The position numbers and the translations under genes are program-made. This document shows positions 27,977-34,459 of a stretch of DNA of 39,563 nucleotides, piece by piece. Location: the NCBI GenBank assembly GCA_018649245.1, contig JABIIH010000253.1, positions 1 to 39,563 of the forward strand, given 5' to 3'. Each line of letters starts with the position of its first letter. Position 1 is the first letter of the stretch. This DNA is from Rhodospirillaceae bacterium. Lineage in GTDB: Bacteria > Pseudomonadota > Alphaproteobacteria > Rhodospirillales > UBA2165. The notes below the pieces were generated by a model. It was not told where the DNA came from. It saw nothing but the letters and a program-made list of their open reading frames with translations, and did not search any database.

Positions 27977-28018
27977 GTTTCCCCTCAGTTTTTAATTTTT
28001 TTGGTCTAACTAAAATTC

Positions 28019-28042
28019 TGACAGCTATGTCTTAGCTGTCAA
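28019..28042. promoter_or_regulatory. Perfect dyad operator overlapping a minus-strand TTGACA in the VOC/deiodinase divergent promoter region
   Basis: TGACAGCTA-TGTCT-TAGCTGTCA (28019-28041). The minus strand reads TTGACA at 28042-28037, and a plus-strand TTGACA lies at 28083-28088. Confidence 0.55.
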
Positions 28043-28141
28043 CCAGATAACCAGAATTTAATCCTGGTGCCAATTTGGTTTCTTGACACTGGTAGAACCA
28101 TTTTGCACATTTCTGCTAACTTTTAATAGCGGGGTATTTTT

Positions 28142-28831
28142 ATGTCGATTGAGGTAACAGGGGAGCTTGACGTATCAGGCGTACCCGATATGAAGCCCGG
28201 TATGACGCCGGCGGATCGCAAAGTAATTTGGCTGCAGGTTGCAGATATGACCGAGCCGGAATTTGACGCCATGATGGCGGCAAATAAGGCGCGTCAAGTC
28301 AAGGTGCCTGAGCAGGGCAGCGAGGCACCGGATTTTAATCTGGATGTGCTGGACCGGGAAAAAGGACGGACCGGCGAAAAAATCAGCCTTTCAAGTTTTC
28401 GGGGTAAACCGGTCGGGCTGATCTTCGGCTCTTACACCTGACCGCCTTATCGTGATTGGGCCGTGCGCCTAAACGAAATTTACAACAGCTACAAAGATCA
28501 GGTTGAATTTCTCAGCATATATATTCGTGAAGCCCATCCGGATGACGGCTGGCGGTCCAAGAAAAACATCTTGGATGGCATTCGCTATATCGAGCCCCGG
28601 ACCGATGATGAGCGGACTGAGGTTGCTACCGTCTGCCAGCAGATGATGGAATTGCAAATGCCTATGCTGATCGATTCCATCGATAATGATGCCGAAAGCA
28701 AATATATCTCGATACCGATGCGGCTTTATCTGGCCGATGCTGACGGTAATTTAGCTTATGTCGGCGGCGAAGGGCCGTTTAACTTTAAGCCTGATGAATT
28801 TGAAGCGGCGATAAAAGAGCTAACTGCCTAA
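28142..28831 (+). CDS. Iodothyronine-deiodinase-like thioredoxin-fold selenoprotein (229 aa, Sec100 encoded by TGA 28439-28441)
   Basis: The two ORFs are in the same frame and separated only by the TGA. Read-through gives KPVGLIFGSYT-U-PPYRDWAVRLNEIY...FLSIYIREAHPDDGW...DSIDN...MRLY...YVGGEGPF, matching deiodinase motifs FGS[CA]TUPPF, YIxEAHxxDGW, ERLY and GGxGP. A SECIS-like hairpin follows. Confidence 0.9.
28450..28476 (+). promoter_or_regulatory. Putative bacterial SECIS element
   Basis: UCGU/ACGA lower stem, GA bulge, UUGGGC/GCCUAA upper stem and apical loop CGUGC (28462-28466) with GU. The loop starts 21 nt after the UGA. Confidence 0.7.
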
Positions 28832-29607: not shown

Positions 29608-30311
<704 letters not shown>

Positions 30312-30312
<1 letters not shown>

Positions 30313-31040
30313 CAGACGTCTTCCTCTTCACCGAGATAACAGTCCAGAACCGCTGGGTCCTGGGAGATATGTTCAGGCGTGCCTTCGCTTATTTTTTCGC
30401 CGTGATGAAGTACCGCCACATGATGCGACAGAGACATCACTGCCCGCATGACATGCTCGATCAATAATATTGTAATGCCGGTTTCCTGGTTGAGCGATTT
30501 AAACACCGCGACCATTTCATCGGTCTCAGTCGGCCTTAATCCGGCCATTACTTCATCGAGCAAAAGCAGTTTTGGCCGGGTTGCCAATGCCCGGGCAACT
30601 TCTAATCGCTTGCGGTCGGGCAGGGTCAGGCTGTGGGCTGGTTGATAAATTTTGTCAGCCAAGTCCAATAGTTCAATATTTTTGCGGGCTGCCTCTCTCG
30701 CTTCGCCGATATCGTGGGTGCCATGTAAGGCGCCGACAGTAACGTTTTCCAACACCGTCATGTCGGGGAAAGGCTTGACCAATTGAAAAGTCCGGCCAAT
30801 ACCGGCGTCGCATATCTGATCCGGTCTCAGCCCCAAAATATCATTACCGGCCAGGATGATGCGCCCTTCATCTGCGGGGAACACGCCGGCGATAAGATTG
30901 AACAGCGTCGTCTTACCAGCGCCGTTCGGACCTATTAGCGCTACCAGGCCGCCTTCTTCAACGCTCAAAGATACGTTGGCAACAGCCCTCAATCCCTTGA
31001 AGCTTTTACTGACATTTTCAATTTTAAGCAGGGCGGCCAT
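30312..31040 (-). CDS. livG: HAAT-type ABC ATPase
   Basis: GPNGAGKTT, GIGRTFQ, LLDEVMAGL and IEHVM. Confidence 0.92.
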
Positions 31041-32081
31041 TTAGTCGCTCTCCTTTCGGCAAAAGCCGAGCTTGTCATTTAGCCACGGCCAGATACCTCG
31101 CGGCTTGAACAATACAATCAAGGCAACCACCAATCCCCAAATCAACAGTTTAAGACCATTGAGTTTCGATTTTGGGTCGATGATGCCAGAGCTTTTTAGA
31201 AAATCGATCAATTCCGTCAGCCCTTCGCCCAAGGGCGTTAGAATAAAAGCACCGAGCACCGGCCCAAATAAACTGCCGACGCCACCGACGATAGGTCCTA
31301 AGGAAACCTCGATGGAGCGCTCAATGCCGAAGACAGATTCAGGAAATAAACTGTTTTGATAAAAAGCGTAAAAAACACCAGCGACCCCGGCAATGCCCGA
31401 GGAATAAATCACCGCATACATTTTATAGCGAAAGACATTGATGCCGAGAGCCTGGGCTGCATCCTGGTCGTCCCGGATGGCCTGCCAGTAGTAGCCGAGC
31501 TTGCTTTTGAGTAAAGAGCGGCAACCGGCGAGGGTTAAAAAGGCCAACACCATGGCAAGATAATAAAACATCCACGGATGACCCCTGAGATTAATCAGAT
31601 CGACGCCCTTCCGGTCACCTTCAGAAACCTGCAGGAACAAGCCCTCTGTGCCGCCGATGACAGCCATATGATCAACTGAAATCCGCACCAATTCAGCAAA
31701 GGCGATGGTCAGGAGCGCAAAATAAACGCCACCGATTGAGAAGCGGAAACCGAGATAGCCGATCAGCATACCCATTAAGATTGCCAGCAGAACTGCCGGA
31801 AAAATTCCGATCACCGGCGGCAGTCCGAGCACGGAAAAAAGATAGGCGGCCAAATAGGCACTGACGCCAACGAACAAGGCATGGCCCAAGGATAGCAAGC
31901 CGGCAAAGCCCAGCATCAAGTTCCATGACTGCCCCAAGATCGCCAAATAAAGCGTGATGGTGGCGACGGAAATAATATAGGAGCTGGACCAAAAGGGCAG
32001 CGAGATCAGGATGGCTAAAAATAGCAGCAATCCGATCCTGCCCTTATTTGTAAGGTCGGCCAGCATATTGAACCCCATCAT
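31041..32081 (-). CDS. livM: HAAT-type ABC permease (LivM-like)
   Basis: GLLSLGHALF, GVYFALLTIAF and AIRDDQDAAQALGIN. Start is 32081 (ATGA overlap) or 32066. Confidence 0.88.
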   Translation of the reverse strand: MMGFNMLADLTNKGRIGLLLFLAILISLPFWSSSYIISVATITLYLAILGQSWNLMLGFAGLLSLGHALFVGVSAYLAAYLFSVLGLPPVIGIFPAVLLAILMGMLIGYLGFRFSIGGVYFALLTIAFAELVRISVDHMAVIGGTEGLFLQVSEGDRKGVDLINLRGHPWMFYYLAMVLAFLTLAGCRSLLKSKLGYYWQAIRDDQDAAQALGINVFRYKMYAVIYSSGIAGVAGVFYAFYQNSLFPESVFGIERSIEVSLGPIVGGVGSLFGPVLGAFILTPLGEGLTELIDFLKSSGIIDPKSKLNGLKLLIWGLVVALIVLFKPRGIWPWLNDKLGFCRKESD

Positions 32082-32953
32082 TTAATCGATTTTCCCATCA
32101 GTCCTTGCGGCCTGAGCAACAATACCAAGATGAGCAGACCAAAGCTGAAGGCTGATTTCATCGATGGTTGAAAAACGATAGCTGCCAAGGCTTCGGACAT
32201 GCCGATCAGGATGCCACCCACCAAAGCCCCGGTCATGCTGCCAAGGCCGCCAATGATGACGATGACAAAAGCCAATAAGGTATAACCGGGGGCCAAATAG
32301 GGATGCACTTCTATCAACAACAGAAGAACGCATCCCGCGGCACCCAGACAGGCTGCGCCGATGCCAAAGGTCAGCGCGTATAGATGATCGACTTTCAGGC
32401 CCACCACCTGAGCACCCAAATAATTATCGGCGCAGGCGCGGATCGCTTTGCCGGTACGGGAATATTTGAAAAAGCCCAATAACAGACCCGATATAGCAAC
32501 CGCAGCAATCGCCGCATAAGCCCTAGACTTATCAATAATCAAATCTTCGCCGATATCGAAGGAATCAAAGGAGTAGGAAATATTGATGGCCTGGGGGTCA
32601 GGGCCGAATATCAACAACGACCCGTTAACGATCATCACGGCGATGGCCGCCAATAGCAAAAATTGCATATGGTCGGGCAAATGGGCAACCCGGCTGATCA
32701 CTGTACTTTGCAGGGCGTAACCGAAGACAAACAAAATTGCGGCGGCGAGAGGAATGCTGAGCAGGGGGTCGAGACCGAGCCAGCGAAACATGATCAGCGC
32801 AAAAAACATTCCCATCACCATAATCTCACCATGAGCGAAATTAACGATGCGAATAACGCCGAAAATAACCGAAAGGCCGAGTGCAGAGAGCCCGTAGACA
32901 AGTCCCGTCAGCAGGCCGGTTGCAAGCGCATTGGCCAGCGTCCAAAAGTCCAC
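32078..32953 (-). CDS. livH: HAAT-type ABC permease (LivH-like)
   Basis: GLSVIFGVIRIVNFAHGE, GKAIRA, IIGGLGS and RPQGLMG. Confidence 0.9.
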   Translation of the reverse strand: MDFWTLANALATGLLTGLVYGLSALGLSVIFGVIRIVNFAHGEIMVMGMFFALIMFRWLGLDPLLSIPLAAAILFVFGYALQSTVISRVAHLPDHMQFLLLAAIAVMIVNGSLLIFGPDPQAINISYSFDSFDIGEDLIIDKSRAYAAIAAVAISGLLLGFFKYSRTGKAIRACADNYLGAQVVGLKVDHLYALTFGIGAACLGAAGCVLLLLIEVHPYLAPGYTLLAFVIVIIGGLGSMTGALVGGILIGMSEALAAIVFQPSMKSAFSFGLLILVLLLRPQGLMGKSIK

Positions 32954-32989
32954 GGCTGCTCTCCTGTTCTTCTTATTTAAGTAACAATA

Positions 32990-34258
32990 CTAACCGCGTT
33001 TCTTCCAACCACGCATTGGCCAGATTGGTTTAGCCACCGCCGCGCTTTGCGGCAAGATAACCAAATTCTTGCCACCACGGTTCTGCACCGCAGAATTTTT
33101 CACATACTTATTTTGGCCATTTGGTTCGAAAGCAATGCGCTCCGCCGTCGTCACGTTATTGGTGATGTTGGTGGTTCTCAATGCGGCCTGCAGTGTTTTT
33201 GCATTGGTGGATCCCGCCCTCTTATAGGCATCCGCAGCGATCATGATGCCTTCGAAGGTATAGGTGTGATTCGGATTAACCTGGCGATCCGGGTGATGCT
33301 TGGCAAAATAGGCTTCCAAGGTCTTTGAAAGCGGTTTGTTGGAATCATGCCATGGCACCAGACTGACAACGTCGTCGCCGAATTTGCCGGTGGCTTTCAT
33401 ATATTCCTGATCGTACCAGCCCGGTCCGGTACTCATGATACCCATCGGCTCGAAGCGCTGCTTGACCATTTCTTTGGTCATCATAATTGCATCATTTAGG
33501 CGGCTAACCACCCAAAGGGCCTCGCCGCCACTGGCTTTTGCTTTTCTGACTTCAGCAGATAAATCACGGCCATACGGATCATAGGAAATCTTTTCGACGA
33601 TCTTGTAAGGCATTTTAAATTTCGGGGCCAATTTGAACAGCGCGCCGGCAAGACTAGAGCCGAAGGTGTCATTGACGTGCATCAGTGTAACTGTCTTGGG
33701 TGTATGACCTGTCATTTTAAAAAGAGCCTTCTGATTGATAAAGGCGTCTTTGACGATCATCGGACCATGGGGGAAGTTACGGAAAACCCACTGTAGGCCC
33801 ATGCCTGTTAGTTTCGGCACGGCGGCAATGTTGACGACCAAGGGAATATTTCTCTGTTCGCATACTTGGGCGGCTGCCATGGTCGCGCCAGAATCAAAAG
33901 CGCCGACAATAATTTGCGCTCCTTCATCAATTAGCTTGGCGGTTTGAGTGCGCGCGACATCGACTTTGGTTTCAAAATCGGCGAGCATGAACTTTAGTTC
34001 CGGATAGCCGAGATCTTTCAAAATAGGTAAAGCTGCATCAGCGCCACGCTGGCAATCAATACCGATTTGCGCTTGGCCACCCGAACGAGGCAACAACACA
34101 CCGACTTTTAGCGGATTGGCGGCGCGGGCATTTTTGATATACCACGGCCCGACCGATGCGGCTGCGCCAACAGCGGCAACACCTGCCGTAAACTGGCGGC
34201 GGCTAATGGATGATTTGACTATCTTGGTAGATTTAGTCTTTTTTGCTTTGTCTGTCAT
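32990..34258 (-). CDS. HAAT-type periplasmic binding protein with Tat-like signal
   Basis: SRRQF...ARAA signal, LKVGVLLPRSG and IVGAFDSG. ATG 34258 follows GAGGAGG. Confidence 0.88.
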   Translation of the reverse strand: MTDKAKKTKSTKIVKSSISRRQFTAGVAAVGAAASVGPWYIKNARAANPLKVGVLLPRSGGQAQIGIDCQRGADAALPILKDLGYPELKFMLADFETKVDVARTQTAKLIDEGAQIIVGAFDSGATMAAAQVCEQRNIPLVVNIAAVPKLTGMGLQWVFRNFPHGPMIVKDAFINQKALFKMTGHTPKTVTLMHVNDTFGSSLAGALFKLAPKFKMPYKIVEKISYDPYGRDLSAEVRKAKASGGEALWVVSRLNDAIMMTKEMVKQRFEPMGIMSTGPGWYDQEYMKATGKFGDDVVSLVPWHDSNKPLSKTLEAYFAKHHPDRQVNPNHTYTFEGIMIAADAYKRAGSTNAKTLQAALRTTNITNNVTTAERIAFEPNGQNKYVKNSAVQNRGGKNLVILPQSAAVAKPIWPMRGWKKRG

Positions 34259-34459
34259 AACGTCCTCCTCTGGATTTATATTGTTGCCAAAGATAGTAAG
34301 CATGTCTTTTTGAAAACGGAAGGGCTAAGTTTATTTTGCAAGTCGTTATCAAAAGCCAACTAACACTCATCTTCTATTAGTTTTCTTGCTGCCTTTGCTG
34401 GCTTTGATTATGGTCGGCAAAACGCCAATCGCCAAATACTATTCTGTTGGGAGCTACAA

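Follow-up and report, generated by a model that had tools for sequence, protein, structure and literature searches.

A gene at positions 28142-28831 of contig JABIIH010000253.1 (assembly GCA_018649245.1, Rhodospirillaceae bacterium), whose full 39,563 nucleotides we call the window, appears to encode a selenoprotein related to the iodothyronine deiodinases. Comparison with related sequences gives good support to the view that this is a genuine selenoprotein gene, which gene callers split in two at its selenocysteine (Sec) codon. The explanation that best fits the data as a whole, and which we hold to be very probable, is a single gene for a soluble deiodinase-like selenoprotein in which UGA100 is recoded, a hairpin acts as Sec insertion sequence (SECIS), and Sec100 and Cys165 take part in the mechanism proposed below. 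The host is an uncultured marine alphaproteobacterium. The gene is an expected member of an already described family, since Sec-containing bacterial deiodinase-like proteins were reported in 2005. The details added here are modest: a U-P-P-[F/Y] subtype with the distal Cys165, the loss of two residues related to thyronine chemistry, and the presence of one to seven Sec copies per genome.

Results

Two open reading frames (ORFs), 28142..28441 (99 aa, starting with ATG) and 28463..28831 (122 aa, starting with GTG), share a common frame. Between position 28142 and the final TAA the only stop is the TGA at 28439-28441, and the 21 nt that separate the two ORFs translate as PPYRDWA. A preliminary description made from the letters of the window had reported this arrangement, and it was reproduced exactly. 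The motifs quoted there (FGSYT-U-PPY, YIREAHPDDGW, MRLY and GGEGP) are likewise all present in the 229-aa read-through protein, which contains FGSYT-U-PPYRDWAVRLNE, YIREAHPDDGW, PMRLY and GGEGP, an agreement that goes well past what chance would give. There is no in-frame start codon upstream of 28142, and therefore the ORF cannot extend 5' of this position. The description's central claim, a single 229-aa deiodinase-like protein with Sec100, is upheld by the Pfam match, the conserved TGA, the covarying hairpin, the Cys homologues and the Sec machinery presented below. It had also foreseen that standard annotation would split the gene, and the relatives have indeed been treated in this way: 41 of 54 database matches are C-terminal fragments of 125-146 aa that begin with M/VRLN.

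The family assignment comes from a profile search of the read-through protein, as suggested in the same description. Pfam T4_deiodinase (PF00837) matched with 87.4 bits (cut-off 27; E 1.2e-24), residues 40-224 being aligned with positions 57-233 of the 237 in the profile. An overlapping but weaker match to AhpC/TSA (PF00578) reached 31.9 bits against a cut-off of 26; peroxiredoxin was rejected as best family because this score is far below that of T4_deiodinase. The NCBIfam profile NF038285 (deiodinase_rel) gave 183.2 bits, under its 250-bit cut-off for full-profile membership. The C-terminal 167 residues align with its positions 174-340 of 347, whereas the first 173 positions or so are without counterpart, a gap that follows from the impossibility of extending the ORF upstream of 28142. 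The closest solved structures by sequence are two catalytic cores from mouse, Dio3 (4tr3, E 8.4e-17) and Dio2 (9h48, E 3.4e-14), and in the alignment U100 falls on the Sec-to-Cys residue of both. A structure model was made of P0006, a natural Cys-type homologue 46% identical to the window protein, from an alignment of 45 rows. The model is confident (predicted local distance difference test 94.8, predicted template modelling score 0.91) and shows a thioredoxin fold preceded by two N-terminal helices. Its top fold matches are again Dio3 4tr3 and Dio2 9h48 (E 1.3e-14, template modelling score 0.77-0.80 on the target), followed by ResA/TlpA oxidoreductases and peroxiredoxins (E 1e-9 to 1e-8). For this homologue, the model thus predicts a thioredoxin fold with a deiodinase-type insertion, nearest to the Dio catalytic cores. 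The query also matched P0055 (E 4.3e-8), a database entry of 229 aa that has SurA_N-type Pfam domains; the identity is 52% across 27% of the query, and this protein looks unrelated to the deiodinase family.

The in-frame TGA is strictly maintained among close relatives. A six-frame search covered 41 genomes, the host draft (G000) and 40 relatives, with strong matches defined by E <=3.1e-31. All 50 strong matches carry an in-frame TGA. Of the 25 genomes in the host family, 22 contain such matches, each between 1 and 7, and 22 of the 24 other genomes of this family match the protein. One strong match contains a further TGA, and in one a TAG and a TAA accompany the TGA. Both halves of the protein are conserved in congeners, at 87-89% protein identity. 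At 19 of 20 fetched loci the TGA lies within FGSYT-TGA-PP[F/Y]R, the remaining one (L024) having been missed by the search pattern. A metagenome scan seeded from the C-terminal half only gave 80 loci, in which the catalytic codon is TGA in 74 and TGC in one; one locus (L125) is disrupted upstream and four run off their contigs, so that TGG occurs in none of the 75 assessable loci. L125, in which the catalytic motif is missing upstream of AVRLNE, is possibly a decayed copy, and so is G004:C53:1028-1675, where a TAG and a TAA are found besides the TGA and only a 96-codon frame is readable.

Other homologues carry Cys at this column. When homologues were compared at position 100, as the preliminary description had proposed, 11 of the 12 full-length proteins from databases had Cys, and the related loci TGA. 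A genome scan with a Cys-containing pattern yielded 129 confirmed Cys-type loci, of which 80 were kept; Cys-type relatives are named as Alphaproteobacteria, Acidobacteriota, Opitutia and Planctomycetota, among others. A conserved in-frame UGA with Cys counterparts is the mark of a selenoprotein gene, and these comparisons point to one here. Pieces identical to the N-terminal half (28143-28402) and to the C-terminal half (28477-28672) were present in two metatranscriptome libraries, which is compatible with expression of the gene without proving it.

The UGA is followed by a putative SECIS hairpin within the coding sequence, starting 11 nt after the UGA in the fold. Across 19 related copies the proportion of paired cells is 86.3%, and it does not exceed 38.4% once the 3' partner is slid; in 68 distinct copies the values are 80.0% and at most 41.5%. 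Among these 68 copies, pair 19-33 occurs in six standard types (CG 22, UG 16, AU 13, GC 4, UA 4, GU 1) and pair 22-30 in five (GC 48, AU 5, UA 5, GU 3, UG 1). Columns 33 and 30 correspond to the third, synonymous bases of the Leu and Arg codons; their partners, columns 19 and 22, are the first bases of codons that lie 14 and 8 nt further upstream. Selection at the protein level does not explain the coupling. The structure was derived from the same sequences and the shuffles ignore relatedness; as a consequence, the comparison of Sec-type with Cys-type genes is the stronger control. In this comparison all 19 TGA-type copies form 4-5 of the 5 base pairs of the apical stem, whereas each of the 80 Cys-type genes, read at the same offset, forms 0-3 of them. 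Moreover, V108-R-L-N-E112, the stretch of protein that the hairpin encodes, is nearly fixed in Sec-type proteins (17, 18, 18, 15 and 16 of 18, respectively) and variable in Cys-type ones. A stem-loop just downstream of the UGA with a G in a small apical loop, as seen here, agrees with the spacing and loop rule for bacterial SECIS elements, which follows in part the wording of PMC1088965.

The host lineage appears equipped for Sec insertion. In the host genome, contig C51 carries both selA (566 bits) and the winged-helix domain of selB, the latter within a frame of 842 codons. All five near-complete congeners (G001, G002, G007, G008 and G010) have selD (395-416 bits) and tRNA-Sec (77-80 bits, cut-off 47). 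The selD gene of each of the five contains one in-frame TGA, which suggests that the selenophosphate synthetase is itself a selenoprotein in the host genus. TGA terminates 251 of 1268 long open frames genome-wide and 7 of 25 in the window, and is therefore a normal stop in the host.

Most of the proposed deiodinase proton relay is retained. Residue equivalences were counted along Dio alignments and anchored on residues named in parts of the Dio2 structure paper, and conservation was scored in 98 homologues (18 Sec-type and 80 Cys-type). All 98 have Ser97, Thr99, Tyr127, Glu130 and His132. Cys165, the candidate resolving cysteine, occurs in every one of the 18 Sec-type proteins and in 68 of the 80 Cys-type ones (86 of 98 overall); it sits 8 residues upstream of the vertebrate distal-Cys position, in the preceding helix. 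Residues 1-60 contain no hydrophobic stretch that could form a membrane anchor. The features of the locus are collected in Table 1.

Table 1. Positions in the window of the proposed selenoprotein gene, its candidate functional elements and the adjoining intergenic region
Feature	Position	Strand	Remarks
Deiodinase-like selenoprotein gene, complete coding sequence	28142..28831	+	229 codons including predicted Sec100; TAA stop 28829-28831
Candidate Sec codon UGA (U100), motif FGSYT-U-PPY	28439..28441	+	aligns with Sec-to-Cys position of mouse Dio3 and Dio2
Bacterial SECIS-like hairpin within coding sequence	28450..28476	+	lower stem 28450-28453/28473-28476; upper stem 28456-28461/28467-28472
Hairpin apical loop CGUGC	28462-28466	+	loop begins 20 nt after UGA
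Codons Ser97-Tyr98-Thr99	28430..28438	+	Ser/Thr equivalent to proposed deiodinase relay Ser/Thr (Dio2 Ser127, Thr129)
Codons Y127-I-R-E130-A-H132 (YIREAH)	28520..28537	+	equivalent to Dio2 Tyr157, Glu160 and His162 of proposed proton relay
Cys165 codon, only Cys in protein	28634..28636	+	candidate resolving cysteine, from homologue conservation
Intergenic region shared with divergent glyoxalase/VOC gene	27977..28141	.	presumed promoter site; perfect inverted repeat 28019-28041

Discussion

According to these results, we propose the following scenario for synthesis and catalysis. UGA100 would be recoded as Sec, the downstream hairpin acting as a SECIS that recruits SelB with Sec-tRNA; the constraint on this RNA would also fix the encoded peptide VRLNE. 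Sec100 would be placed at the N-terminus of helix alpha-1 and flanked by the network of Ser97, Thr99, Tyr127, Glu130 and His132, which deiodinases use as a proton relay. A role of Sec100 as the nucleophile is well supported. Its selenolate would attack an electrophilic atom of the substrate to give Se-X or Se-OH, the oxidised selenium would be resolved by Cys165 into a selenenyl-sulfide, and a reductant of the thioredoxin or glutaredoxin type would recycle the enzyme. The resolving role of Cys165 and the use of a thiol reductant are putative.

Several observations weigh against this scenario. The database homologue P0002 has Trp at the U100 column. No contig from other sequencing runs bridges the TGA with 31 letters on either side. 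The folding energy of the hairpin is no better than that of shuffles (z -0.57 and -0.81 in two tests), and the mean energies are alike in Sec-type and Cys-type sequences (-9.6 and -9.8 kcal/mol). An Rfam search returned no SECIS family, its sole hit being a chance small nucleolar RNA (E 9.9). Since neither the energy z-scores nor Rfam gives support, the SECIS assignment is a purely comparative one. The structural model is that of homologue P0006 and not of the window protein itself. Finally, selD and tRNA-Sec were not found in the host assembly; this assembly is 68.8% complete and has about 20 tRNAs, and the gap is therefore weak evidence. Of the machinery that the preliminary description had proposed to look for, selA and selB are in the genome, whereas selD and tRNA-Sec were recovered from the five congeners. 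The best hits of the tRNA-Sec model in the host assembly coincide with ordinary tRNA-Ser genes and were rejected.

If the TGA were a true stop, the locus would be a pseudogene or two small genes, and if it were a sequencing or assembly error it would stand for TGC or TGT. Translation table 11 does split the frame into 99 and 122 codons, gene callers treat the homologues likewise, and the contigs from other runs bridge the codon poorly: only one identical contig covers it, extending 6 bases upstream, and parts of the gene are uncovered in each run. Yet within this fragmentary coverage the contigs of four other runs have no alternative letter at 28439-28441, the TGA recurs throughout the strong matches and the metagenome loci, and both halves of the protein are kept in congeners. 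Moreover, a true stop would break the motif exactly at the catalytic residue, and the covarying hairpin follows the TGA in TGA-type copies only. We therefore regard a stop or an error as highly improbable. Decoding of the TGA as a standard residue such as Trp, whether by local read-through or under a reassigned code, is just as hard to credit. It would account for P0002, and a homologue with Trp was one of the findings that the preliminary description had set down as counting against its claim. One such homologue was indeed seen, but it is 69% identical over its full length to a gene with TGA in its DNA, it keeps AVRLNE, and TGG is absent from the assessable metagenome loci. The Trp of P0002 is for these reasons best read as a gene caller's translation of TGA under another code. 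In addition, TGA is a normal stop in this genome, the residue in homologues is Cys, which usually stands in for Sec, and selA and selB are present. Recoding of the TGA as Sec thus remains by far the preferred explanation. For annotation it matters that gene callers break such genes at the Sec codon, and that one relative carries a probably spurious Trp.

The relation to the vertebrate enzymes DIO1-3 (4TR3/4TR4, 9H48) is close in some respects and distant in others. The motifs F-G-S-x-T-U-P-P-[F/Y] and Y-I-x-E-A-H-P-x-D-G-W are shared, as are the relay residues Ser, Thr, Tyr, Glu and His, whereas the bacterial protein is without an N-terminal anchor and its SECIS would lie in the coding sequence and not in the 3' untranslated region. 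Three substitutions argue against thyronine chemistry. The second His of the relay (Dio2 His182) is replaced by Pro152, a Pro that all 18 Sec-type copies share; the position of Dio3 Arg275, which clamps the carboxylate of the substrate, is occupied by Glu210; and that of the vertebrate distal Cys by Met173. The Glu210 position varies among the 18 Sec-type paralogues (E 7, R 4, Q 2, K 2, M 2). A vertebrate-type iodothyronine deiodinase, with its full relay, Arg275 clamp, distal Cys and membrane anchor, is consequently not what the residues predict.

We suggest that the enzyme may instead carry out the reductive dehalogenation of a small halogenated aromatic other than thyronine, a plausible reading which we put forward with some reserve. 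It is slightly favoured over peroxide reduction because the relay is kept, the deiodinase profile fits better, the habitat is marine and the paralogues vary at a substrate-facing position. The neighbourhoods of related copies, however, show no conserved operon partner that would hint at the substrate. A peroxide or other redox substrate is a possibility to which we give appreciable but lesser weight. In that case the same selenoprotein would be a thiol peroxidase or a thiol-disulfide enzyme of the peroxiredoxin/TlpA kind, involved in no carbon-halogen chemistry, with Sec100 reducing a hydroperoxide or a disulfide and Cys165 resolving; such a function is conceivable to the same degree. The fold is thioredoxin-like and has its nucleophile where helix alpha-1 begins, as in peroxiredoxins, TlpA and ResA. 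The AhpC/TSA profile matches above its cut-off, ResA/TlpA and peroxiredoxins come directly after Dio3 and Dio2 as fold neighbours of the P0006 model, and the thyronine-related residues His182 and Arg275 are lost. Cys-type homologues, moreover, are common in soil Acidobacteriota and Planctomycetota, and parts of the 2005 paper (PMC1088965) favoured a redox function unlike that of animal deiodinases. Against this, T4_deiodinase far outscores AhpC/TSA (87 versus 32 bits), and the relay that in deiodinases protonates the leaving carbon is kept in all 98 homologues. The window protein has no CxxC, and its scores with these other families are much lower. The motif spacing of peroxiredoxins is T-x-x-C, whereas the window protein has S-x-T-U, with Thr immediately before the Sec. 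Going further, one could imagine that the U-P-P-[F/Y] Sec-type proteins are diversified, cytosolic, cofactor-free reductive dehalogenases of marine bromo- and iodo-aromatics, in which the residue at the Arg275 position and a shortened loop tune the substrate, and that they are ancestral to the animal deiodinases; this extension is speculative and we consider it rather unlikely as a whole.

Deiodinase-like selenoproteins of marine bacteria have been in print since the Sargasso Sea study of 2005 (Zhang, Fomenko and Gladyshev; PMC1088965), in keeping with the preliminary description, which mentioned their prediction from marine metagenomes. The relevant parts of that paper report bacterial deiodinase-like proteins with four Sec and six Cys sequences and a bacterial SECIS, and propose a redox role distinct from that of the animal deiodinases, thyroid hormones not being expected in bacteria. 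The Global Ocean Sampling survey of 2008 (PMC2398784, in part) lists 22 Sec and 21 Cys deiodinase-like sequences, and in 2021 a family member fused with an EF-hand domain was described. Portions of two reviews, of 2022 and 2026 (PMC9312934 and PMC13188914), give UxxC as the family motif and describe such functions as largely unknown. As far as these partial sources go, the window gene resembles the prokaryotic family in its PF00837 match, its catalytic in-frame UGA, the downstream SECIS-like element with a G in the apical loop, the coexistence of Sec and Cys homologues, the marine origin and the presumed redox function. It differs from the UxxC motif given in those portions of the reviews in having U-P-P-Y, with no Cys at +3 and the conserved distal Cys165 instead. 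The literature searches turned up no biochemical work on a bacterial member, nor any account of multiple Sec copies per genome in one alphaproteobacterial family. In the literature text, the subtype with U-P-P-[F/Y] and Cys165 was not found described, and Figure 5 of PMC1088965 may show U-P-P-F. A lineage with several Sec paralogues, a clear SECIS and a soluble 229-aa product would be a convenient entry to the biochemical question of the substrate, which bears both on selenium-based dehalogenation in bacteria and on the origin of the animal deiodinases.

Host, paralogues and genomic context

The sequencing runs that contain the stretch come from 15 studies and are labelled marine or seawater metagenomes. 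Named relatives of the L11 methyltransferase encoded in the window belong to Rhodospirillales and to other alphaproteobacterial metagenome-assembled genomes, at 58% identity or less. PF00837 exceeded its cut-off in 6 of 201 genomes sampled across the class (G000 included) and in none of 14 control genomes. The host draft holds at least five further genes of the deiodinase superfamily. One is a second U-P-P-F Sec copy at C285:3901-4575(+), with 96 bits for PF00837. Another encodes a U-P-Y-C Sec-type protein at C207:3248-4051(-), which scores 27.4 bits for PF00837 (cut-off 27) and 29.9 bits for AhpC-TSA. Three others encode Cys-type T-C-S-M-Y proteins of 248-277 codons with 45-49 bits (C48:2811-3641(+), C101:4346-5089(+) and C117:2277-3071(+)). 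The six-frame search showed no strong Cys-type match in the host family. Sec-type copies are most numerous in G015 (seven), with four each in G008 and G016, among genomes G001-G023 of the host family; on contig C8 of G013, a gap of 40 nt separates two copies of opposite orientation (76904-77503 + and 77544-78083 -).

Weaker matches with a thioredoxin fold (E 1e-4 to 1e-6), each with one in-frame TGA, were noticed at G010:C68, G007:C8, G008:C27 and G003:C39, and further ones at G001:C73, G013:C69, G018:C2 and G037:C122; these are probably other thioredoxin- or peroxiredoxin-like selenoproteins. Among the Cys-type homologues L029-L108, a set that includes records of Acidobacteriota and Bryobacteraceae, many lie, by crude ORF extension, in frames of 500-950 codons. 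These may be domain fusions, or an artefact of the long frames that high-GC DNA tends to leave open.

The selenoprotein gene is solitary: it has a divergent glyoxalase/VOC gene on one side and a convergent SDR gene on the other, and its stop and that of the SDR gene overlap by 4 nt. The order pterin-4a dehydratase, glyoxalase/VOC, selenoprotein gene, SDR is kept within the genus only (L010, L011 and L013) and is absent around 15 more distant copies. It is eroded in L012 (G005:C14), where only remnants are left of VOC and SDR (a piece of 41 aa for SDR, and one of 32 aa for the pterin dehydratase) and the selenoprotein gene is intact, flanked by livF and a thiolase gene. Scans of the locus for promoters and terminators gave nothing above shuffles. 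The inverted repeat at 28019-28041 consists of TGACAGCT, a spacer of 7 nt and AGCTGTCA; it is unique in the window, and none of 100 shuffles matched it. It was not seen in the other 193 loci, and we do not propose it as a conserved operator since the orthologous loci are among those that lack it. Downstream, at 29608-34303 on the minus strand, the translations read as an apparently complete ATP-binding cassette transporter cluster for branched-chain amino acids, with two ATPases, two permeases and a binding protein.

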